Sequence record: MN850570.1
Source of the DNA: Escherichia phage mellemsur
DNA: 40,770 bases
Reading direction: 5' to 3' (one strand)
Position 1 is the stretch's first letter. Each line of letters opens with the position of its first letter. The notes beneath the pieces are model-generated. The model was given only the letters and a program-made list of their open reading frames with translations. It had not been told where the DNA came from and did not search any database. Below are positions 2,520-28,193 of this stretch, in pieces. Made by a program: the position numbers and the translations under genes.

Positions 2520-2909
2520 TTACTCCACTACCCAAAACAGTTCACCGTCATAAGTCCAAGCGGTATGCTGCCCGGCTTCCATCTGCTCGCCTGTTTTGCT
2601 GACCAGCTTGCCAGCAGGCTTGCCCGGATACGGTGAATCCATGAAGATTGCATCATCATCTTTGGTCACTACCATGATGCAGTCCTGTTCAAGAGCTTTA
2701 CAGAACAGCTTAACAGCCTGCCTGATTTCGTAGATTCCATCGACAGGAAATACCATGCTCAACTCATACTGATTGTCGAACTTGCCTGTCAGCGTGACCG
2801 GAATCACTCCGAACATATCCTGCACCGTTCGCAGTGCCTTGCAATGAAGCGCCAGATTAACACATTCAGCGTTATTCGGACGATATGCGCTTGCATAGAT
2901 ACGGTACAT
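2520..2909 (-). CDS. hypothetical protein, first gene downstream of early promoter cluster
   Basis: 129-aa ORF with GGAG Shine-Dalgarno; preceded by about 400-nt leader. Confidence 0.5.
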   Translation of the reverse strand: MYRIYASAYRPNNAECVNLALHCKALRTVQDMFGVIPVTLTGKFDNQYELSMVFPVDGIYEIRQAVKLFCKALEQDCIMVVTKDDDAIFMDSPYPGKPAGKLVSKTGEQMEAGQHTAWTYDGELFWVVE

Positions 2910-3341
2910 AGTTATTTCTCCAGTTGTTGGCTATTTTCAGGTGGATAGTGAACCCATTGTGACGCGCCGTACAGTCTGCACTCGTTGGCATTGATTGGCT
3001 TGTCGGATTCACTACCCTGAAAAATCGCCCCGCCCATTTCGCGCCGTGGATATTGTCTGCATCCACTCTCAGGAGTCCTCCAGCAGTCCGGCTCACCGTT
3101 TCCAGCTTGCCTACCTACCCGCTTCACTCCGCGCCTTATAAGACGTTCGGGATTGTGCTGATACTGCGCTGCGTCTATCGCGCTTCTCCGTTCCCATCGC
3201 ACCGGGCGCTACCCCTATTGCCTTTCGGCGGTGCCCTCACCAGTTCCTAGCTGCGCCGGATACCCATGAGGCCGAGACACTACGTGGCCTGTTTACGTTC
3301 ACTCAGAGCAGGTTGTTTTGCAACCTTTCAACTCGGTGCTG

Positions 3342-3370
3342 ATTACATCACATCGTATTCAGCGTGTCAA
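3342..3370 (-). promoter_or_regulatory. sigma70-like early promoter (TTGACA-N17-TGTAAT on minus strand)
   Basis: plus-strand attaca at 3342-3347 and tgtcaa at 3365-3370 with 17-nt spacer. Confidence 0.45.
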
Positions 3371-3421
3371 CTACTTTTTACTTCTGACTGACTGGCTTGC
3401 TGCCCTGTCAATCTGGAGCGT

Positions 3422-3450
3422 ATTACAGCATACTCGTTTCATCCTGTCAA
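3422..3450 (-). promoter_or_regulatory. sigma70-like early promoter (TTGACA-N17-TGTAAT on minus strand)
   Basis: plus-strand attaca 3422-3427 and tgtcaa 3445-3450, 17-nt spacer. Confidence 0.45.
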
Positions 3451-3558
3451 CCGTTTTATTCAGCGCCCGTTCTGAGATGAATAATCCGTACCAGTTTGCC
3501 TGCGTGTGTTTTAACGTCTTTATCAATGACTGTTTGGCTTGCTGGCTGACGTGGAAGC

Positions 3559-3587
3559 ATTACAGCATAGTGAGCTTGCCTTGTCAA
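3559..3587 (-). promoter_or_regulatory. sigma70-like early promoter (TTGACA-N17-TGTAAT on minus strand)
   Basis: plus-strand attaca 3559-3564 and tgtcaa 3582-3587, 17-nt spacer. Confidence 0.45.
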
Positions 3588-3661
3588 TACACTCCAGATT
3601 GTTAAAGAGCAGTGCTACCGTTCAATCTTGTCTACTGGGCTAGTGCCTTTCGACGTGATGA

Positions 3662-3691
3662 ATTACAGCACATAACCAAAACAGTTTGCAA
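3662..3691 (-). promoter_or_regulatory. sigma70-like early promoter (TTGCAA-N18-TGTAAT on minus strand)
   Basis: plus-strand attaca 3662-3667 and ttgcaa 3686-3691, 18-nt spacer. Confidence 0.4.
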
Positions 3692-3712
3692 GTATTATTT
3701 TCAAGAAAAGTG

Positions 3713-3731
3713 ATAAGTTACTGTAATCATT
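3713..3731. repeat. direct repeat copy 1 (ataagttactgtaatcatt) in AT-rich spacer
   Basis: 19/19 identity with 3792-3810; flanks also similar (gagatta / agataatta). Confidence 0.6.
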
Positions 3732-3791
3732 GAGATTAAAGTTTGATTGGATAATCACAACACTGGATAGAATACCGTTATCAGATAGGTC

Positions 3792-3810
3792 ATAAGTTAC
3801 TGTAATCATT
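3792..3810. repeat. direct repeat copy 2 (ataagttactgtaatcatt)
   Basis: identical to 3713-3731, about 79 bp apart. Confidence 0.6.
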
Positions 3811-3818
3811 AGATAATT

Positions 3819-3850
3819 ATGAAAGTGTCTATAGTGATATAGTATCGCTA
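3819..3850 (-). promoter_or_regulatory. conserved element copy B (minus strand reads tagcgatactatatcactatagacactttcat)
   Basis: 21-nt core tatcactatagacactttcat identical to 25712-25732 (there on plus strand); contains CACTATAGA, the core shared with T7/SP6-type promoters. Confidence 0.4.
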
Positions 3851-4320
3851 GATACGCAGAGCGAGCGCGGCGCAGCCGAAACAAGCGAGCGCCGAACGGA
3901 TGACGGATGGCAGACCGTAGGACTGACAGACGGCAGACAGTGAAGGCAGTAGGACAGTAACAGCAGGTAGCAGAGCATGACGCGCAGAGCTGGCAGGCGC
4001 AGACAGTAGACCGGCACACCACACAGCAGGACGGCAGCACCACGCCGCACACCGCTACACACCAGCACCACACAGCACCACGAAAAGAGACAGATACCCG
4101 CACGACCGAGCGCAGCACGCAGCACCGCACAGCCAGCGCAGAGCGTCCCCATAGGACAGCACCGCACAGCACAGCCAGCAGGACAGCGCACAGCACGTCA
4201 CACGGCAGACGATGAAACGCGACACGCACGAGCTATACCGCACGCAGGCAATCCTCTTGACGCGCCGCGCAGCGCACGCGAGCAAATATCGCGCACGTCG
4301 CGAGGCTAATCCGCGCACAC
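3851..4320. repeat. T-depleted (plus strand) degenerate short-repeat tract, presumed genome terminus / terminal-repeat region
   Basis: Manual count roughly 29 T in about 470 nt; recurring CAGCAC/CACAGCA/GACAGC units; lies between last late gene and early promoters. Confidence 0.65.
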
Positions 4321-5355: not shown

Positions 5356-5812
5356 CTTTCACTTTCCTTTTCCACGGAGATGGTACAAACCACATGACTA
5401 AACCAAGGATACACGTAAGGCCCATGCCGAAAGCCCATAGGAGGCTGCGTGGGTCGCTCTGAGAGACGATAACTGTGCGAGCCTGTACGTTTCCTTGGGT
5501 CATTTGCGACCCCTGCTTAGAAGCGTTTACAGAGCCTCCTGAGACGTCCTTGATGGATGTGCCATTCGAACCCTGCTTAGCGGTATCCACTTTCGCGTTG
5601 CCAGATACGTCACCGACTTCGGTTTCATCGGACTGTTTCGCAGTCACACCGATACCTTGCTTCGTATTTTCTGCACCTACCTGAGCCGTCAGTTCCGGCT
5701 TGTTGGGAGATACAGCCGAAGTTACAGCAGACAGTGCGCTAGTTGCGGAGCAGCCCGTCAGAGTCAGCGACGCTGATAGGACTGCCCCGGCCATTAGCCG
5801 AGACAGTTTCAT
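5324..5812 (-). CDS. outer-membrane lipoprotein with C-terminal transmembrane anchor, candidate unimolecular spanin
   Basis: Signal peptide with lipobox LTGC; Ser/Thr/Lys-rich region with KQG repeats; C-terminal TMD LLWAFGMGLTCILGLVMWFV and basic tail; adjacent to holin-like gene and endolysin. Confidence 0.5.
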   Translation of the reverse strand: MKLSRLMAGAVLSASLTLTGCSATSALSAVTSAVSPNKPELTAQVGAENTKQGIGVTAKQSDETEVGDVSGNAKVDTAKQGSNGTSIKDVSGGSVNASKQGSQMTQGNVQARTVIVSQSDPRSLLWAFGMGLTCILGLVMWFVPSPWKRKVKDDGSKEGAIS

Positions 5813-5822
5813 GAGATACCCC

Positions 5823-6017
5823 TTACGCTGCGGCGTTCGTCAGGTTAGTGAGCGCCGTTTGAACACGGGTCACGAACTCTTGGTAATACGCCACCAGCTC
5901 AGTGTTGGTGGTATCGAAGAAGTAGTCTTCCGTCCAAACGTTCAGATACTTGGCCGCCATATTACAGGCTGCCACGAACTCCGCACGTTCAGCAGCGGTA
6001 GAGTCAACAAGTGCCAT
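5823..6017 (-). CDS. hypothetical protein
   Basis: 64-aa ORF between post-terminase gene and lysis cassette. Confidence 0.45.
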   Translation of the reverse strand: MALVDSTAAERAEFVAACNMAAKYLNVWTEDYFFDTTNTELVAYYQEFVTRVQTALTNLTNAAA

Positions 6018-6709: not shown

Positions 6710-8469
6710 TATTTGATTCTCCGTCGCGTGCCGCGCACAGGTTTATGGCTACGCCACTTCGAGTCATCGTAACCCATTGGGTTGGCAAGGAACTCGCGTG
6801 CGGCAGCCGTCTCGCGCTTGGCAGCTTCTTCATGTTCGTCCTGCTGTAGCACCTCAGCGTGCAGGTACACGGCAGCAGATAGGGTTTCGATACGGTCATC
6901 GTGTGGGATGGATTGACGGTCTTGTGTCAGGTTCTGGAGCTGCCAGAACAGGCTGAACTCTCGACCACCGTTGTTCATCCCGCGACACAGCCGCAGGTCT
7001 TCTTCAACAACGCACCAGTGTACGACGACACGGTGACGCTGCATGATTGGGCCAAGGCGGTTGATGATACGCACCTCTTTCTGGCCGGACGAGTACACGC
7101 CTTCACAGCCAATGGCCAAGCTCTGGCGCTTAATCTCACCTCGGTACATGTTGGTCACGGTGCCGTGGCCCATGTTATCCTCAATGACCAGCCGTTTAAC
7201 CCCGGTTTCAGCGAGCCACTCTACCGCCGCCTTGATGTTTTCCTCCGTCTGGCCGCCGTGGTAGACGTGCATACCGATGACGTGGATAAACGGGCCGACA
7301 GAAGCGGTGGCAATGATAACTGATTCGTCCGACCCACCACCAGCAGGGTCAAGAAACGCCGAGGTATTTTCGAATGGTACATAAGTGTCCGAGAAATCAG
7401 CAGCCAAGAATAGCTGAGCACGAGCCAGTGGGAAATCCAGTGGCAGCTCGGCGGCATGGCGCGGGTGGTTCGACCAATGCAGAACCTCCGGCGCGGACTG
7501 CGTTGAGCCGTGGAAGAAGATTAAGTCTTTGAGATGTAACGTTTGTTTGAGCGCATCCGACAGCGACGTGTCCAGCATGAACTGCAACTGGAAGCCTGCC
7601 TGCTGGTAGTCTCGTTCGTTCTGCAACTGCTTTTCTTCGGAGTAGCGTTGCGGGTCAGTCTGTGCGCCACGGTTCCCAAGGATACCGTGTCCGGTACGCA
7701 GCTCAGGGTGGCCTTCCATCTTCTGCTTAATCCACGGGGCCAGACAGCCGCCGTAGCGTTCTTCTTCCTCAACCGTTGGGAAACGACCGGGCCAGATGCG
7801 AACGTCGAAGCCACGCTGTGGGAGCGTGTTGTAGATGGAGTCTTGAGTCTGTGGCGTGCCGAGGTACAGAATCTCTGCACCATCGTTGGCGATAGCCGCG
7901 AACTCTTTGGTCAGGGTGTTGATACGGGCGCGGTTGGCAGGAGAGCTACCGTTACTGGTAGTCTCCACGTCATCGGCAATCAACAGCGATACGTGGTTCC
8001 CCTGTAGCTGGCCGAAGATACCGACCGCTTTTACAGAGGGCTGTTTGTCAGGGATACGGAACGCGTGATGCACGTCGAAGCCGTCAGTAAATGACGTACG
8101 TGCGCCAGCGCGAGTCTCAGGCTTGAGCCATTCCAGACGTTCCCACTGCATGATAGCCGACACGATAGCGTGCGACAGCGTACCAGCATAGTCGTCGGAA
8201 CCGGACACAAGCAGGACAGTGGCGTTCGGCATCTGCACAAATTCGTACAGAGCGCGAGCAATACCGATGGTGGACTTTGCCTCACCACGCTGCGCCATGA
8301 CGCACTTGTTCTTGAGCGTCCTGTCGGCCATGTAGCGGCCAATGTCGAGCTGCATTTCAGTGAGGTCAAAGCCCAGCCATGCGAAGTAGTCATGCAGGAA
8401 CAGCGGGAAGTTGTTCTCGTAGTGGGCGCGAACGATTCCTGCCATCACCATGCGGCGTTGTAAATCCAT
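6709..8469 (-). CDS. terminase large subunit
   Basis: 586 aa (same length class as T7 gp19); position after tailspike and small ORF as in T7-like late operon. Confidence 0.75.
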   Translation of the reverse strand: MDLQRRMVMAGIVRAHYENNFPLFLHDYFAWLGFDLTEMQLDIGRYMADRTLKNKCVMAQRGEAKSTIGIARALYEFVQMPNATVLLVSGSDDYAGTLSHAIVSAIMQWERLEWLKPETRAGARTSFTDGFDVHHAFRIPDKQPSVKAVGIFGQLQGNHVSLLIADDVETTSNGSSPANRARINTLTKEFAAIANDGAEILYLGTPQTQDSIYNTLPQRGFDVRIWPGRFPTVEEEERYGGCLAPWIKQKMEGHPELRTGHGILGNRGAQTDPQRYSEEKQLQNERDYQQAGFQLQFMLDTSLSDALKQTLHLKDLIFFHGSTQSAPEVLHWSNHPRHAAELPLDFPLARAQLFLAADFSDTYVPFENTSAFLDPAGGGSDESVIIATASVGPFIHVIGMHVYHGGQTEENIKAAVEWLAETGVKRLVIEDNMGHGTVTNMYRGEIKRQSLAIGCEGVYSSGQKEVRIINRLGPIMQRHRVVVHWCVVEEDLRLCRGMNNGGREFSLFWQLQNLTQDRQSIPHDDRIETLSAAVYLHAEVLQQDEHEEAAKRETAAAREFLANPMGYDDSKWRSHKPVRGTRRRIK

Positions 8470-8774
8470 TAGTGCATCATCCCGCTATCTTCTGCGATTG
8501 AGTTGATGGCAGCAGACATGATATCTTTACGACCTGCTTCCGTTTTCTCGTTATTGAGCTGCTCTTGCAGCGCGAGTAAATCGTCGGCGTGGTCTTTATC
8601 AGCCTGAATACCGTTATCTTTCAGGAACTGGCGAAGTACGGACAGCTCAGCCGCCGCCATAGGTTCGATGATATTGCCGTGTTCATCTTTCCTACGAGCG
8701 TCGGCCAAGCGGTCGGACAGATACTCCACCAGCATCCGGTGCAGCCCGTCGAGCTGCTTATTCACGGATGCCAT
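8469..8774 (-). CDS. putative terminase small subunit
   Basis: 101-aa helical/acidic protein immediately upstream of large terminase with TAATG overlap; assignment by synteny only. Confidence 0.45.
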   Translation of the reverse strand: MASVNKQLDGLHRMLVEYLSDRLADARRKDEHGNIIEPMAAAELSVLRQFLKDNGIQADKDHADDLLALQEQLNNEKTEAGRKDIMSAAINSIAEDSGMMH

Positions 8775-25464: not shown

Positions 25465-25650
25465 TCAAATCACTCTTTCTCTGATGAAATCCAGAACGTC
25501 TTGCTTACCAGCCTCTCTGTTAATCAGAGGTAGGTTAGTGTCGGGAGTGACTGTCTTACCTACCTGAGACCATGTACCGAAGTGCTTCTCCAGTAGAGCT
25601 AACTGTGCTTTAGTGAACTGAACTCTTTCAAGTGGAGATTCTTTACCCAT
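25465..25650 (-). CDS. hypothetical small protein (start at MGKESPLERV)
   Basis: AAGAGAGGA Shine-Dalgarno before internal ATG; first gene after RNAP. Confidence 0.45.
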   Translation of the reverse strand: MGKESPLERVQFTKAQLALLEKHFGTWSQVGKTVTPDTNLPLINREAGKQDVLDFIRERVI

Positions 25651-25699
25651 ACAATCCTCTCTTAGTGGCAGCAACCCCCGCCACTGACGGGGCTACCGG

Positions 25700-25760: not shown

Positions 25761-28193
25761 TCAGCAGAAAAACTTGCTTGATTGTTTCACAAGCTGGATA
25801 TCCAGATTGCCCCGTTCGGGTGCAACAGCATTGTATCGTACAGCAAGTTGTTGAATTGGGTCATGTTGCTCATACATCTGTACGAACTTTTCACGAATGA
25901 CCTTGTGGAGTAACCCGGCATGTGCAGCCGCCACCCCGAACGAATCGTGGATGGACACCATGTACACCCCGTTATTCCACATCTCCCACAACACCTTCAT
26001 CATGTGGCTAGCATCCATGGCGTGTACGAAATTCGGAGCAATCGCAGCGGCACACTTCCTGCCGTCCGGCTTGTCCAGATACTCGCGCAGCTTAATGCTG
26101 TGGATACCCATGAGGTTGATGTTGTTGAGCATCGTCTCCTTGCTGGCTTGATACAGGTTAACCACCCGCAACCCCGATGGTGCAATGATTTCCACGTACT
26201 CGCCGTTGGCTGCCGCCTCAACAGCGATAGCCTGCAACCATGCCATCAGCTCTGCCGCCTTCGGCACAACGCGAGGGATTGCATTCCACATAAACTCTGC
26301 GATGAACTGCGCACACTCCAGCAGGCTCTTGCCGTCCGGCAGCTTGACCCGGTTCTCTCGCAGGTACAGGCAGTAGTAGTCCACCATGCCGTGCCGGGTT
26401 GCCCCGTACACGTAGGTCATCACTGGCTTCTTAGCCATCGCCCGGACAATACCGATTGAAACAAGCCACGTACCCATCTGCGTCGGTGACTGCGCCTCAC
26501 TATCTTCAAGAGCCTGCATCGCCGCTGCTGCCGTCTTGAGATATATGTCTGCTTTTCTTCCCACGCTATTGATAAGATTGACAGCAGCACCGCCAACTTC
26601 ATCTCGTAGCATCGCACTGAGGTGCTGTAATCCTGAACAGGTAGCGTCCCATTGCGTAACCACTCGGCAGGGATAAGTCTCAGGACTTCCTGAGTCGATA
26701 GCGCGAATGAGTTCAACAGAGGCAGCCCACGCGCTGATAGGGCTATCGGCTTCTGACCAGAACGAATCAAATGCCTCTGGAAGACGGCACGCCTCACGTA
26801 GTCGGGGGAGTGTCTTGTCCGTCCACGCCGCCCGGTCGTCGAAGTCTGTTGCGTCGTAGCCGAAGCAATTCGCAACATGAACCTTGAGCCAGAACAGCCC
26901 CTCAGTTCCGAGAGCCACTGGTTCCGCAAGCTCAAGCAGCGCTCGCACTGCGTCGATAGACTGAGGGTTAAGGGTCGAAGAATAATAAATTCGGCCCCGC
27001 GTATCGGCGTAAGTCGGGAGATAAATCCTATCGTACTGTGCATACCTGTCTGCCTCTTTGACTGCACCATTCAACGCCAGCATCTGCGACGTGAACTTAC
27101 GCAACTCATTGTAATACAAGCGAGTCTTCACCTTGTACTCATGAGCTTCGGCACCCATCTGCTGCTGCATCTCTGGTGGGAACTTGCTGATGTACTGTGC
27201 AAAGCTCACACCAGCGGGGATGGTGAACGGAAGTGTAGGCTCACGGGGTGGCACAGGCAGCCCCATAACGCCTGTACGGTTCGTTCGCAGGAACTCCAGT
27301 ACCATTGGGTTAACTCGGTACGGAACGCTGCTGAGCATCATACACGGCTCTATAACGGGGGTCGGGTCAACGTTCAATGCACGATACCCTTTGTGGTTCA
27401 TGCGGCTCATGACCCGGTACATCGCCGCCTGCCCATCGGAATGCCACATACCGCTGCGACCGTTCGGGGCAATCTGCTTCGGTGGGATAATCAGCGGTGG
27501 GCAGCACATGCCATCAGCACGCGGCATGTCCAGCCAGTCGTTCATCGTAGCCAGCACATCTTCGTGCAGTGCGAAGTGTGCCGTACCGCGCTGGCGCTGG
27601 TTGCCGCCGGCGCGAATCGTGGACACCAGACCAGTTGGCTCGACGCACTTCATCATCAGCTTGCCAATGGTAATCAGCGCACGCTGCGGCAGCACATCAA
27701 TCTCTACCCCAACGTTCGCCGCCGACGCACGCGCTTTGTTGTAGACGTGGTTCGCTGACTTCGAGCGAGACTTCTTCACGTCCTGCTTAACGCGCTCCAT
27801 GTACGCCGCCTGCTGTGGCCCGGTCTGCTTCGCCCGGAGGTACACTACCTCAGCCATCAGTGCCTTGCCCATGCTCTTGAGCAGACTCAGTACCGCCTGC
27901 TCCGACGCAGCACCGGACACCGCCATGCTCAGTGCGAGAGAGGCACACGCTTTGGTGCCAATCTCACGCATGTACGTCCGGTACTGCGCACCATACCCAC
28001 GGGTCGTTTCGCTCAAGGTTTCTTGCATCGCAGCTTCGACCAGAGGATAAGCCTCAACCATCATACGCTGGAGCAACGGCACCGACCCGGCGCGGCCACT
28101 GGCCATCGCCTCTTTGATATTATCCAGCCAGCCCTCGCGGTGTCTGGCTCGCGCTTCTTCTTCAAGTCGAATCTGCTCTGCAAGTAAATCCAC
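25761..28193 (-). CDS. single-subunit DNA-dependent RNA polymerase (T7/phiKMV-type)
   Basis: 810 aa; DATCSGLQHLSAML (T7 RNAP motif A region) and SIHDSFG (motif C region). Confidence 0.9.
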   Translation of the reverse strand: MDLLAEQIRLEEEARARHREGWLDNIKEAMASGRAGSVPLLQRMMVEAYPLVEAAMQETLSETTRGYGAQYRTYMREIGTKACASLALSMAVSGAASEQAVLSLLKSMGKALMAEVVYLRAKQTGPQQAAYMERVKQDVKKSRSKSANHVYNKARASAANVGVEIDVLPQRALITIGKLMMKCVEPTGLVSTIRAGGNQRQRGTAHFALHEDVLATMNDWLDMPRADGMCCPPLIIPPKQIAPNGRSGMWHSDGQAAMYRVMSRMNHKGYRALNVDPTPVIEPCMMLSSVPYRVNPMVLEFLRTNRTGVMGLPVPPREPTLPFTIPAGVSFAQYISKFPPEMQQQMGAEAHEYKVKTRLYYNELRKFTSQMLALNGAVKEADRYAQYDRIYLPTYADTRGRIYYSSTLNPQSIDAVRALLELAEPVALGTEGLFWLKVHVANCFGYDATDFDDRAAWTDKTLPRLREACRLPEAFDSFWSEADSPISAWAASVELIRAIDSGSPETYPCRVVTQWDATCSGLQHLSAMLRDEVGGAAVNLINSVGRKADIYLKTAAAAMQALEDSEAQSPTQMGTWLVSIGIVRAMAKKPVMTYVYGATRHGMVDYYCLYLRENRVKLPDGKSLLECAQFIAEFMWNAIPRVVPKAAELMAWLQAIAVEAAANGEYVEIIAPSGLRVVNLYQASKETMLNNINLMGIHSIKLREYLDKPDGRKCAAAIAPNFVHAMDASHMMKVLWEMWNNGVYMVSIHDSFGVAAAHAGLLHKVIREKFVQMYEQHDPIQQLAVRYNAVAPERGNLDIQLVKQSSKFFC

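Follow-up and report, generated by a model that had tools for sequence, protein, structure and literature searches.

Early promoter clusters read by the host RNA polymerase are textbook knowledge for T7, and the locus studied here raises the question of whether another phage runs such a cluster on promoters whose -10 element departs from consensus at its most critical base. The window (that is, the whole 40,770-nucleotide stretch of DNA analysed, from Escherichia phage mellemsur, MN850570.1) is a permuted Bonnellvirus genome. A sequence-only reading had placed four tandem sigma70-like promoters with identical -10 hexamers on its minus strand, about 80–140 bp apart, and one TTGCAA-N18-TGTAAT and three TTGACA-N17-TGTAAT sites are indeed present at the positions that it gave, with -35-to--35 distances of 104, 137 and 80 bp (Table 1). 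The window has three copies of the arrangement TTGACA-N16–18-TGTAAT, for which 100 dinucleotide-preserving shuffles give an expectation of 0.00; neither hexamer is enriched by itself (TGTAAT, 16 genome-wide against 10.7 expected; TTGACA, 25 against 22), so the promoter signal resides in their combination. We consider it probable that the four sites are early promoters for the host sigma70 polymerase, tuned through a G at -11, with a boxA element carried by P1 transcripts only.

Table 1 Features of the early promoter region and its surroundings (positions of the window; start sites are predictions)
Feature	Position	Strand	Details
P1 promoter	3662..3691	minus	TTGCAA-N18-TGTAAT; -35 3691..3686, TG 3670..3669, -10 3667..3662; extended -10 TGTGC; predicted start near 3655
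P2 promoter	3559..3587	minus	TTGACA-N17-TGTAAT; extended -10 TATGC; predicted start near 3552
P3 promoter	3422..3450	minus	TTGACA-N17-TGTAAT; extended -10 TATGC; predicted start near 3415
P4 promoter	3342..3370	minus	TTGACA-N17-TGTAAT; extended -10 TGTGA; predicted start near 3335
A-rich UP-element-like tract	3692..3703	minus	TGAAAATAATAC; adjoins P1 -35 on upstream side
Variable segment, P1 start to boxA	3612..3654	minus	boxB-like position
rrn-type boxA	3599..3611	minus, transcribed sense	TGCTCTTTAACAA; between P1 and P2, directly 5' of P2 -35
GT-rich stretch	3588..3598	minus	TCTGGAGTGTA; after boxA; resembles (resemblance only) rrnB leader AATCTGTGTGGG (boxC region)
Untranslated G-rich structured leader	2910..3341	minus	432 nt, P4 to SAM lyase start codon; G 138, C 102
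Long near-invariant helix	2934..3023	minus	5' arm 3023..3002, 3' arm 2963..2934
First early gene, S-adenosylmethionine (SAM) lyase	2520..2909	minus	T3 gp0.3-type anti-restriction; Pfam PF23780, E = 3.8e-25; SAMase in relatives' annotation
Phage RNA polymerase gene	28193..25761		~16 kb downstream of cluster (phiKMV-type order)

The sigma70 optimum is a TTGACA -35 hexamer at 17 bp, and the hexamers are 17 bp apart at P2–P4 and 18 bp apart at P1 (17 or 18 bp in relatives), within the 17 ± 1 bp expected of such promoters. Two further elements had escaped the sequence-only reading: a TG at -15/-14 before each of the four -10s, forming TRTGn motifs, and A-rich tracts immediately 5' of the -35 at P1, P3 and P4. 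The sequence TGNTGTAAT occurs seven times against 0.94 expected, with four of the seven copies inside the cluster, and GAAAATAA in the tract upstream of P1 is unchanged in all relatives; from its base sequence, this tract may serve as an UP element. The -10 hexamer itself is where the sites depart from consensus. Positions -11 and -7 are the two flipped bases of the -10, and -11 is the most critical, normally a near-invariant A; TGTAAT keeps the T at -7 and has G, not A, at -11. A scan with the promoter consensus, the kind of check that had been proposed for these sites, reported none of the four because it requires A at the second hexamer position, and predictors with this requirement would overlook real early promoters of this group.

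Conservation was assessed in 15 genomes with 59 promoter copies, and it falls on exactly these elements: the core (-35, TG at -15/-14 and -10) varies in 2 of 56 columns, compared with 31 of 61 in the spacers (p ~5e-9) and 108 of 293 in other intergenic sequence. The TG is present in all 59 copies and G at -11 in 58; the -35 is TTGACA in 44 of 44 copies of P2–P4, and at P1 it is TTGCAA in 14 genomes and TTGCCA in one. The P1 spacer varies in 11 of 16 columns and in length (17 or 18) between fixed hexamers and TG, and the P4 spacer in 9 of 15 columns, with a fixed TG followed by A, T or G at -13; the -10 of P4 reads TGAAAT in smaasur alone. At P2, not only the core (0 of 14 columns) but also the spacer (1 of 15) is nearly invariant, which may reflect a role of this stretch within the P1 transcript. 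The sister genus likewise keeps TTGTCA, TTGACG or TTGACA-N17–18-TGTAAT. Identical hexamers had been put down to either duplication or strong selection, and it is selection that these counts favour. Outside the core, similarity among the four copies is at chance level (the best pair, P3–P4, matches at 16 of 37 positions, p ~0.04 uncorrected), and an invariant core between unrelated flanks points to selection rather than recent duplication. Identical core elements in four neighbouring copies might also invite the view that the sites are chance matches or inert relics of tandem duplication; we regard this as exceedingly improbable, given an expectation of zero, conservation specific to the core in 15 genomes and the sister genus, and the dissimilar flanks. 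Occasional copy-to-copy exchange is seen in individual genomes (a P2/P3 fusion in Lidtsur and the P4 spacer of RZ4).

The position of the cluster is that of an early promoter region. The linear relative J8-65 has a 259-bp terminal repeat (1–259), -35 hexamers at 687, 793, 929 and 1008, promoters spanning nt 687–1036 and its first CDS at 1468; the window has the same arrangement, in which the cluster has the physical left end on one side and the first gene on the other. The proposed likeness to T7 A1, A2 and A3 holds up on this basis (that is, a cluster that follows the terminal repeat in J8-65 and faces the SAM lyase gene), and further backing comes from a boxA 17-mer common to both phages and from the coding strand between the cluster and the phage RNA polymerase gene (~16 kb), where the promoter scan found no other credible sigma70 site. 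Both phages have tandem rightward host promoters ~100–130 bp apart within the first kilobase beyond the terminal repeat (starts at 498, 626 and 750 in T7, compared with the J8-65 -35s above), near-perfect -35 hexamers at 17–18 bp, the 17-mer GCTCTTTAACAATCTGG and an anti-restriction first gene. In addition, P3 and T7 A3 share AAAACGGTTGACA (3457..3445 in P3) and a spacer ATGAA; P3 matches A2 and A3 at 17 of 37 positions outside the -35 hexamer (p ~0.02–0.03 before correction for 21 comparisons), and the other pairs compared are at chance level. There are also clear differences. In the T7 -10s (GATACT, TAAGAT and TACGAT) the base at -11 is A and the TG extension is lacking, whereas each of the four sites here has TG before a TGTAAT, and hence G at -11. 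The T7 boxA lies downstream of A1, A2 and A3, that of the window between P1 and P2, and the T7 RNA polymerase gene is ~3 kb from the left end.

A closer precedent is Pantoea phage LIMEzero (NC_015585; Waewaevirus), the record of which lists 'Putative Pantoea specific promoters' at homologous positions before the corresponding SAM lyase gene. Of its three annotated promoters, two are TTGTCA-N17-TGTAAT and TTGACG-N17-(TGA)TGTAAT, so that both the kind of element and the TGTAAT -10 are already predicted in a public record, as predictions of the depositors only. LIMEzero has fewer copies, a degenerate P2 equivalent and an unannotated ORF between boxA and the last promoter, and its boxA (GCTCTTTATACA) has one mismatch to the consensus. 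The presence of a cluster was to be expected, T7 being the textbook case, and homologous sites are annotated in LIMEzero; the new point is the retention of G at -11 throughout a phage subfamily, under measurable purifying selection and always together with TG and a consensus -35. Our literature search found no promoter study of a Bonnellvirus.

How a promoter works with this base can be approached from biochemistry. In a promoter with consensus -35, TG and -10, G at -11 was the largest single-change defect in vitro and left too few heparin-resistant complexes for kon or koff to be measured (PMC1919498); for this reason, the word 'strong' that the sequence-only reading applied to the cluster is unproven. 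The replacement of A by G in all four promoters rather suggests a tuned than a maximal strength, and we favour the interpretation that -11G would make open complexes short-lived and so tune output. The absence of T and C at -11 among the 59 copies, the substituting base being always G, hints at a constraint beyond plain weakening. That TGTAAT is able to act as a -10 follows from the AhdI CR promoter (TGGACT-N18-TGTAAT), the start of which was mapped by primer extension after this hexamer (PMC2275141), and from predicted TGTAAT -10s in regions bound by Esigma70 in SELEX, including TTGACA-17-TGTAAT at bdcA. The AhdI CR promoter is of the sigma70 type like the phage sites, yet single, weak, without a consensus -35 and regulated by the C protein (sites centred at -29 and -44), and it is not a phage early promoter. 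Closer in setting is the putative A1-homologous promoter of IMM-002-type Studiervirinae, which precedes boxA and a SAM hydrolase gene. It combines a perfect or near-perfect -35, a 17-bp spacer and a TG extension absent from T7 A1 with a -10 in which -11 is not A (TGG-TTTAAT or TGG-CCTAAT). The base in question is T or C where the sites of the window have G, and the departure is confined to the first promoter of that cluster.

The same comparison bears on whether the -10 has been placed in the right register. TAATNN would need a spacer of 19–20 bp and lacks T at -7 (C or A instead), TATGCT would require a 12-bp spacer, and AATNNN has an inconsistent T at -7; TGTAAT at 17 bp fits better than every other register tried. 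This register is supported by the homology of the IMM-002 promoter to T7 A1 and, suggestively, by the likeness of the P3 sequence to T7 A3.

Given that hardly any stable complexes form in vitro on -11G promoters, even with a consensus -35 and TG, the sites could be thought of as tight-binding but mostly unproductive docking or sink sites, perhaps with a single one firing, and early transcription would then start mainly elsewhere. This is quite unlikely, as 16 kb of coding strand offer no alternative host-type promoter while the phage RNA polymerase gene needs the host polymerase first, a boxA after P1 would be pointless unless P1 fires, and TGTAAT promoters with mapped starts are known. Attenuation has a selective rationale in T7, where, according to one study (PMC3709561), down-mutations in A3 or mutations in boxA abolish the need for the host-polymerase inhibitor Gp2. 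It would tie in with the harm done to T7 by an excess of boxA-antiterminated host transcription. If the promoters fire in vivo, they constitute a natural experiment on how far an extended -10 and a -35 can make up for a missing flipped adenine at -11, and bear on why a lytic phage uses attenuated, possibly growth-state-sensitive early promoters.

An alternative cause for the fixation of G is that (C)TGTAAT doubles as an operator at which an early phage protein or a host protein turns the early promoters off (or on), and the specificity of that protein, not polymerase kinetics, would then fix the base. We consider this unlikely, although it would explain a preference more specific than for any weakening base (58 of 59 copies keep the G), CTGTAAT clusters on both strands (five of seven genome copies within 3422–3806), and another shut-off route is conceivable in a phage with no recognisable Gp2-type inhibitor (a search with PHROGs found no Gp2 homologue). 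However, the two opposite-strand copies belong to 19-nt repeats, and their ATTACAG core is not kept in J8-65, smaasur, aldrigsur and Lidtsur; P4 has ATGTAAT, GTGTAAT or TTGTAAT, which leaves only TGTAAT as the common part; the hexamers lack dyad symmetry and have no candidate binding protein; and the genome-wide count of CTGTAAT (7 against 3.4 expected) was reached in 4 of 100 shuffles.

Another holoenzyme or an accessory factor that tolerates -11G (for example, sigmaS or a factor delivered by the virion) is in our view very unlikely. C at -13 is a base favoured by sigmaS, and TGC precedes the -10 of P1–P3 in nearly all genomes; a second podovirus lineage also has a non-A base at -11. However, sigmaS has the same A-11/T-7 requirement as sigma70, which weakens this reading, the -13 base of P4 is A, T or G, no sigma-like gene was found among the proteins scanned, and perfect TTGACA at 17 bp is the optimum of sigma70 itself. 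A CTTGAAA 5' of P1 resembles a sigma32 -35, without a CCCCAT -10 and absent from half the genomes, and inspection by eye revealed no sigma54, sigma28 or sigmaE pattern. Promoters for the phage RNA polymerase can be set aside because the motif is confined to the cluster: neither it nor the 19-nt upstream repeat occurs elsewhere in the genome, and no genome-wide repeat family was found. Also rejected were a CRP site at P4 (TGTGATGTAATCAGCA, with only 2 of 5 matches in the second half-site), the late-promoter motif of phage 7-11 (tgtgatgttata, resembled by TGTGATGTAAT at P4 and absent from P1–P3, with no sigma gene found) and a 19-mer match in locus L020, which is a chance match in an unrelated contig.

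We return to sigma70 promoters as the preferred reading, for which the sequence between P1 and P2 is informative. The P1 transcript carries a boxA at about +44 to +56, and P1 is the only promoter upstream of it. The 17-mer CACTGCTCTTTAACAAT (3614..3598) is identical at 17 of 17 positions to the E. coli rrnB leader, and GCTCTTTAACA at 3610..3600 fits the functional boxA consensus GYTCTTTAANA (PMC5725501) and follows P1 in the sense direction. This consensus matches once in the window against 0.07 expected, and there is one match at the equivalent position of each Bonnellvirus and of two further loci (L017 and L021); a C-to-T change in J8-65 falls on the Y position. T7 carries the identical 17-mer at 813–829, and its boxA is genetically functional (Savalia 2010, cited in PMC3709561). 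Apart from such work on T7, our search found no paper tying boxA to Autographiviridae. A second boxA after P4 was considered and rejected (TGCTCTGAGTGAA matches at only 8 of 13 positions and fails the consensus).

The setting also resembles E. coli rrnB, in which tandem promoters (P1 and P2) with an A/T-rich upstream tract likewise precede a long untranslated structured RNA, and in which the boxA stretch is followed, as in the phage, by AATCTG and a GT-rich segment. Unlike the phage TGTAAT, the rrn -10s are canonical (TATAAT or TATTAT), and boxA in the phage is preceded by P1 alone; the short-lived open complexes of rrn promoters are due to a spacer of 16 bp and a GC-rich discriminator rather than to the base at -11. 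The segment between the P1 start and boxA falls into three unalignable sequence types, which were folded singly without a consensus fold. In most relatives it forms a stable hairpin (-15.8 to -22.4 kcal/mol, z -2.3 to -4.0) with compensation (GUAGC/GCUAC versus GUAAC/GUUAC), whereas the hairpin of the window is weak (-6.7 kcal/mol, z -0.39). Both boxB and boxC are dispensable in rrn.

On the basis of these observations, we propose that P1–P4 are the functional counterpart of T7 A1–A3 at the leading end of the genome, from which the host polymerase would transcribe the entering DNA and, if entry proceeds as in T7, also help to pull it in. Each promoter would combine recruitment elements (-35, 17–18-bp spacer, TRTGn and A-rich tract) with a defective melting element (-11G), giving high polymerase occupancy with slow-forming or short-lived open complexes and thus a tuned, conditional output. 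P1 transcripts alone would acquire boxA and, by analogy with rrn and T7, load NusB/NusE and other Nus factors, and the modified polymerase would then be processive as far as the phage RNA polymerase gene, across ~16 kb of genes for early functions and DNA metabolism. P2–P4 would contribute further transcripts, without the modification, that cover the structured leader and first genes. More tentatively, the Stentvirinae (and, independently, IMM-002-type T7 relatives) might represent a distinct early-promoter design, in which maximal recruitment by an UP-like tract, a consensus -35 and TRTGn is paired with a selected non-A base at -11 for kinetics like those of rRNA promoters, with high occupancy but an inherently unstable open complex, and output is split between boxA-modified P1 and unmodified P2–P4 transcripts. 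If true, early transcription would be sensitive to the growth state of the host (initiating NTP, ppGpp/DksA and supercoiling) and self-limiting later in infection; the P1 class would reach the distant polymerase gene, and the P2–P4 class would yield mainly leader RNA and the first genes.

The leader that follows P4 is long and highly structured; in T7, the A3 start and gene 0.3 are ~175 nt apart. Its minimum free energy has a z of -2.5, and RNAalifold on 14 Bonnellvirus leaders gives 114 pairs, 14 of them with compensatory changes. When three Waewaevirus-type leaders are added, 81 pairs remain, in which 99.1% of cells are paired against 93.0% in shuffles (0 of 500); this enlarged set has 20 double-change pairs, compared with 8.1 when shuffled and 1–5 with slid partners. 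No Rfam family or tRNA was found in the leader; the only hits fell below threshold and ran antisense to the SAM lyase gene (Mn riboswitch at 20 bits, cut-off 45 bits, E = 0.005), and they were treated as chance. Together, boxA and this covarying leader offer handles on how the host polymerase travels ~16 kb to the polymerase gene in phiKMV-type genomes. Towards its 3' end, the leader contains an irregular conserved helix of ~20 bp or more that ends ~25 nt 5' of the ATG; by its placement, which is like that of T7 R0.3, this helix is a candidate RNase III site. LIMEzero retains the helix through three compensatory pairs.

The promoter region of this phage matches about 20 Bonnellvirus records at 83–96% identity (subfamily Stentvirinae, Autographiviridae, now Autoscriptoviridae), and on its circularly permuted map the genes run along the minus strand. 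Four sites on that strand (P1–P4, numbered in transcription order) are exactly as the sequence-only reading described them, with three matches to TTGACA-N16–18-TGTAAT found in the window against 0.00 expected. Neither TTGACA alone nor TGTAAT alone is enriched genome-wide, and the combination with a TG extension has no further copy anywhere in the genome. All four −10 hexamers, which deviate from TATAAT only at position −11 (G for A), are preceded by TG at −15/−14 within a TRTGn motif, and A-rich tracts lie immediately 5′ of the −35 hexamer in P1, P3 and P4. P1–P4 are quite probably early σ70 promoters. Promoter prediction, proposed earlier as a check, failed to recover them: a consensus scan of the window reported 0/4, because it demands A at −11.

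Features of the probable promoter region and associated loci (window coordinates unless a locus is named)
Feature	Position	Strand	Description
P1	3691..3662	minus	TTGCAA-N18-TGTAAT
P2	3587..3559	minus	TTGACA-N17-TGTAAT
P3	3450..3422	minus	TTGACA-N17-TGTAAT
P4	3370..3342	minus	TTGACA-N17-TGTAAT
boxA	3611..3599	minus	TGCTCTTTAACAA; invariant block between P1 and P2
Leader	2910–3341	minus	432 nt, untranslated, G-rich; between P4 and SAM lyase ATG
Long irregular helix	3002–3023 paired with 2934–2963	minus	near-invariant; ends ~25 nt ahead of SAM lyase ATG
Repeat AATGATTACAGTAACTTAT	3713–3731, 3792–3810	minus	two exact copies 79 bp apart, in AT-rich stretch just 5′ of P1
A-poor stretch	3850–4230	minus	~380 bp; 18 A in 381 nt of coding strand
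Phage RNA polymerase gene	28193..25761		single-subunit; ~16 kb downstream of P1 on permuted map
69-aa ORF	25465–25674	minus	adjoins 3′ end of phage RNA polymerase gene
Mn2+ riboswitch match	2645–2684	plus	antisense to SAM lyase CDS
~115-codon ORF	LIMEzero (L015) ~989–1336; contigs L021 ~8234–8580, L017 ~5509–5850		unannotated in LIMEzero record

Across the window and 14 relatives, 59 promoter copies were located, of which 58 carry TGTAAT, one (P4 of smaasur, L012 852–880) carries TGAAAT and none carries TATAAT; TG occupies −15/−14 in 59/59, next to an A, T or G at −13 in P4. The −35 hexamer is TTGACA in 44/44 copies of P2–P4 and TTGCAA in 14 of the 15 copies of P1, in which the hexamers stay fixed and the spacer between them differs in sequence as well as in length (17 or 18 bp), a classic footprint. 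In the multiple alignment, variable columns make up 2/56 of the core (that is, both hexamers and the TG), 31/61 of the spacers and 108/293 of other intergenic sequence (Fisher p ~5e-9). The earlier suggestion of either duplication or strong selection is thus borne out in its second half only: outside the core, P1–P4 are no more alike than shuffled sequences (best pair P3–P4, 16/37, p ~0.04 uncorrected), and the common hexamers therefore point to selection, not recent duplication. Exchange between promoter copies does take place: Lidtsur (L014 718–746) has three promoters and has lost exactly the P2-to-P3 unit in an exact P2/P3 fusion, apparently through a shared TATGCTGTAAT, and in RZ4 (L011 1257–1286) 15 nt of the phage's P1 spacer recur in its P4 spacer, suggestive of gene conversion between the copies.

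The predicted design is retained in the sister genus Waewaevirus. In Pantoea phage LIMEzero the depositors annotated TTGTCA-N17-TGTAAT and TTGACG-N17-(TGA)TGTAAT as putative host promoters, and TTGACG-N18-(TGC)TGTAAT and TTGACA-N17-TGTAAT occur in two LIMEzero-like contigs from metagenomes, together with the variants TTAGAT and AACTAT. Farther afield, IMM-002-type relatives of T7 (L026 ~520–548; homologous sites in L054 and L096) have a promoter homologous to T7 A1 and in its register, with a spacer GTCTAAC and a downstream GACACGGC in common, that reads TTGACA-N14-TGG-TTTAAT or TTGACT-N14-TGG-CCTAAT. Whereas T7 A1 (TAG-GATACT) is without a TG extension, these sites combine one with T or C at −11; the homology supports the assigned hexamer register, and non-A at −11 paired with TG has therefore evolved in two or more podovirus lineages.

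The test promoter of Schroeder et al. (PMC1919498), a consensus −35 and −10 with a TG extension, has precisely the architecture of P1–P4, and in it no other single change cost as many stable complexes as G at −11, which left too few for kon or koff to be measured. TGTAAT does not preclude promoter function; it is the −10 hexamer ahead of the mapped start of the AhdI CR promoter (PMC2275141) and the predicted one in several genomic SELEX regions bound by Eσ70, among them bdcA (TTGACA-17-TGTAAT). We suggest that P1–P4 join strong recruitment elements to a weakened melting step, a combination that, with kinetics inferred, may yield a tuned and probably condition-sensitive output; their strength is unproven. 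Weakening does not fully explain why G, and not any non-A base, is strictly fixed. A −10 hexamer doubling as a protein operator would accommodate this, as well as the local enrichment of CTGTAAT on both strands, yet conservation does not extend to the copies on the opposite strand, and we regard it as a minor alternative to a weakened melting step.

As had been claimed, the promoters point at early genes, the first being that for S-adenosylmethionine (SAM) lyase (Pfam E = 3.8e-25; T3 gp0.3-type anti-restriction function). The proposed resemblance to T7 A1–A3 also holds, given this first gene, a common boxA 17-mer and the position in the linear type phage J8-65, where the homologous region lies directly 3′ of the 259-bp terminal repeat and ahead of the first annotated gene at 1468. 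P3 shares AAAACGGTTGACA and ATGAA with T7 A3, an overall likeness that is only suggestive. With its flanks, boxA agrees at 17/17 positions with the corresponding boxA stretch of the E. coli rrnB leader, and it conforms to GYTCTTTAANA, a consensus established by experiment (PMC5725501). The window has one match against 0.07 expected, and every Bonnellvirus and both LIMEzero-like contigs likewise have a single one at the equivalent position. Between boxA and the last promoter, Waewaevirus-type genomes have an ORF that Bonnellvirus lacks (~115 codons, ATGCATCCAATCAC...). The segment from the P1 start to boxA (the boxB position) forms a stable hairpin in most relatives and a weak one in the window.

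T7 has the identical 17-mer (GCTCTTTAACAATCTGG) at 813–829, past A1–A3 and ahead of gene 0.3. The same 17-mer is found in at least 120 stretches of viral contigs (L024–L143) and at least 120 of metagenome contigs (L144–L263), some of the latter appearing to be bacterial rrn leaders that continue into the 5′ end of 16S; phage leaders with a boxA are therefore nothing new. A prophage-like context (GGACGCTTA-17-mer-TCCCCATCAACAAG, with TTGACA-16-CATAAT 138 bp upstream) occurs 36 times among the matches listed. What is new here is the conserved G at −11 and the placement of boxA behind the first promoter only, whereas in T7 it follows all of A1–A3.

Before the phage RNA polymerase gene lie helicase, DNA polymerase and exonuclease genes, and the coding strand from the cluster to that gene holds no convincing host-type promoter (matches at or below chance, none above 9/12); host polymerase started at the cluster is therefore the only visible route to early and middle gene expression. 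The 69-aa ORF just beyond, which weakly matches a PHROG without assigned function (E = 4e-4), lies at the place of the Gp2-like host-RNAP inhibitor gene in phiKMV-like phages. Predicted P1 transcripts alone would carry boxA and, if it acts as in rrn operons and T7, might gain Nus-factor-dependent processivity toward the distant polymerase gene, and P2–P4 would add transcripts without this modification. T7 boxA is an established element whose function has been shown genetically, and, according to the account of Savalia et al. (2010) in PMC3709561, boxA mutations or A3 down-mutations render the host-RNAP inhibitor Gp2 dispensable, which provides a documented reason why excess antiterminated host transcription harms.

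The leader is, as modelled, a conserved structured RNA with a strongly covarying multi-helix fold (MFE z = −2.5). With the structure derived from the same alignment that served for the counts, 114 pairs are predicted within the genus (14 compensatory), and 81 across Bonnellvirus and Waewaevirus-type genomes. In this wider set 99.1% of cells are paired (shuffles, 93.0%), and 20 pairs have changed on both sides, a number that compares with 8.1 for shuffles and 1–5 for slid partners. Indels are hairpin-sized, GATAGACNCAG, CAAACGTCTWATARG and AGCTGGCAACGGTGA are conserved single-stranded blocks, and the leader matches no Rfam family. The long helix, retained in LIMEzero by compensatory changes, is by position a candidate RNase III processing site (compare T7 R0.3). 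The Rfam match to the Mn2+ riboswitch scores 20.4 bits, below the 45-bit cut-off (E = 0.005), and is most likely due to chance.

Upstream of P1, the AATGATTACAGTAACTTAT repeat has no other copy in the genome and is partly conserved in relatives (ACTTATC being most constant); each copy holds CTGTAAT on the opposite strand, and the pair might serve as a leftward A0-like promoter or as a signal for packaging or replication. The A-poor stretch consists of degenerate short G/C/T repeats (periods 5–10); the 170–190-aa 'hypothetical proteins' annotated at its equivalent in several relatives look like artefacts of skewed composition, and the stretch is probably a portion of a repeat structure near the genome end.
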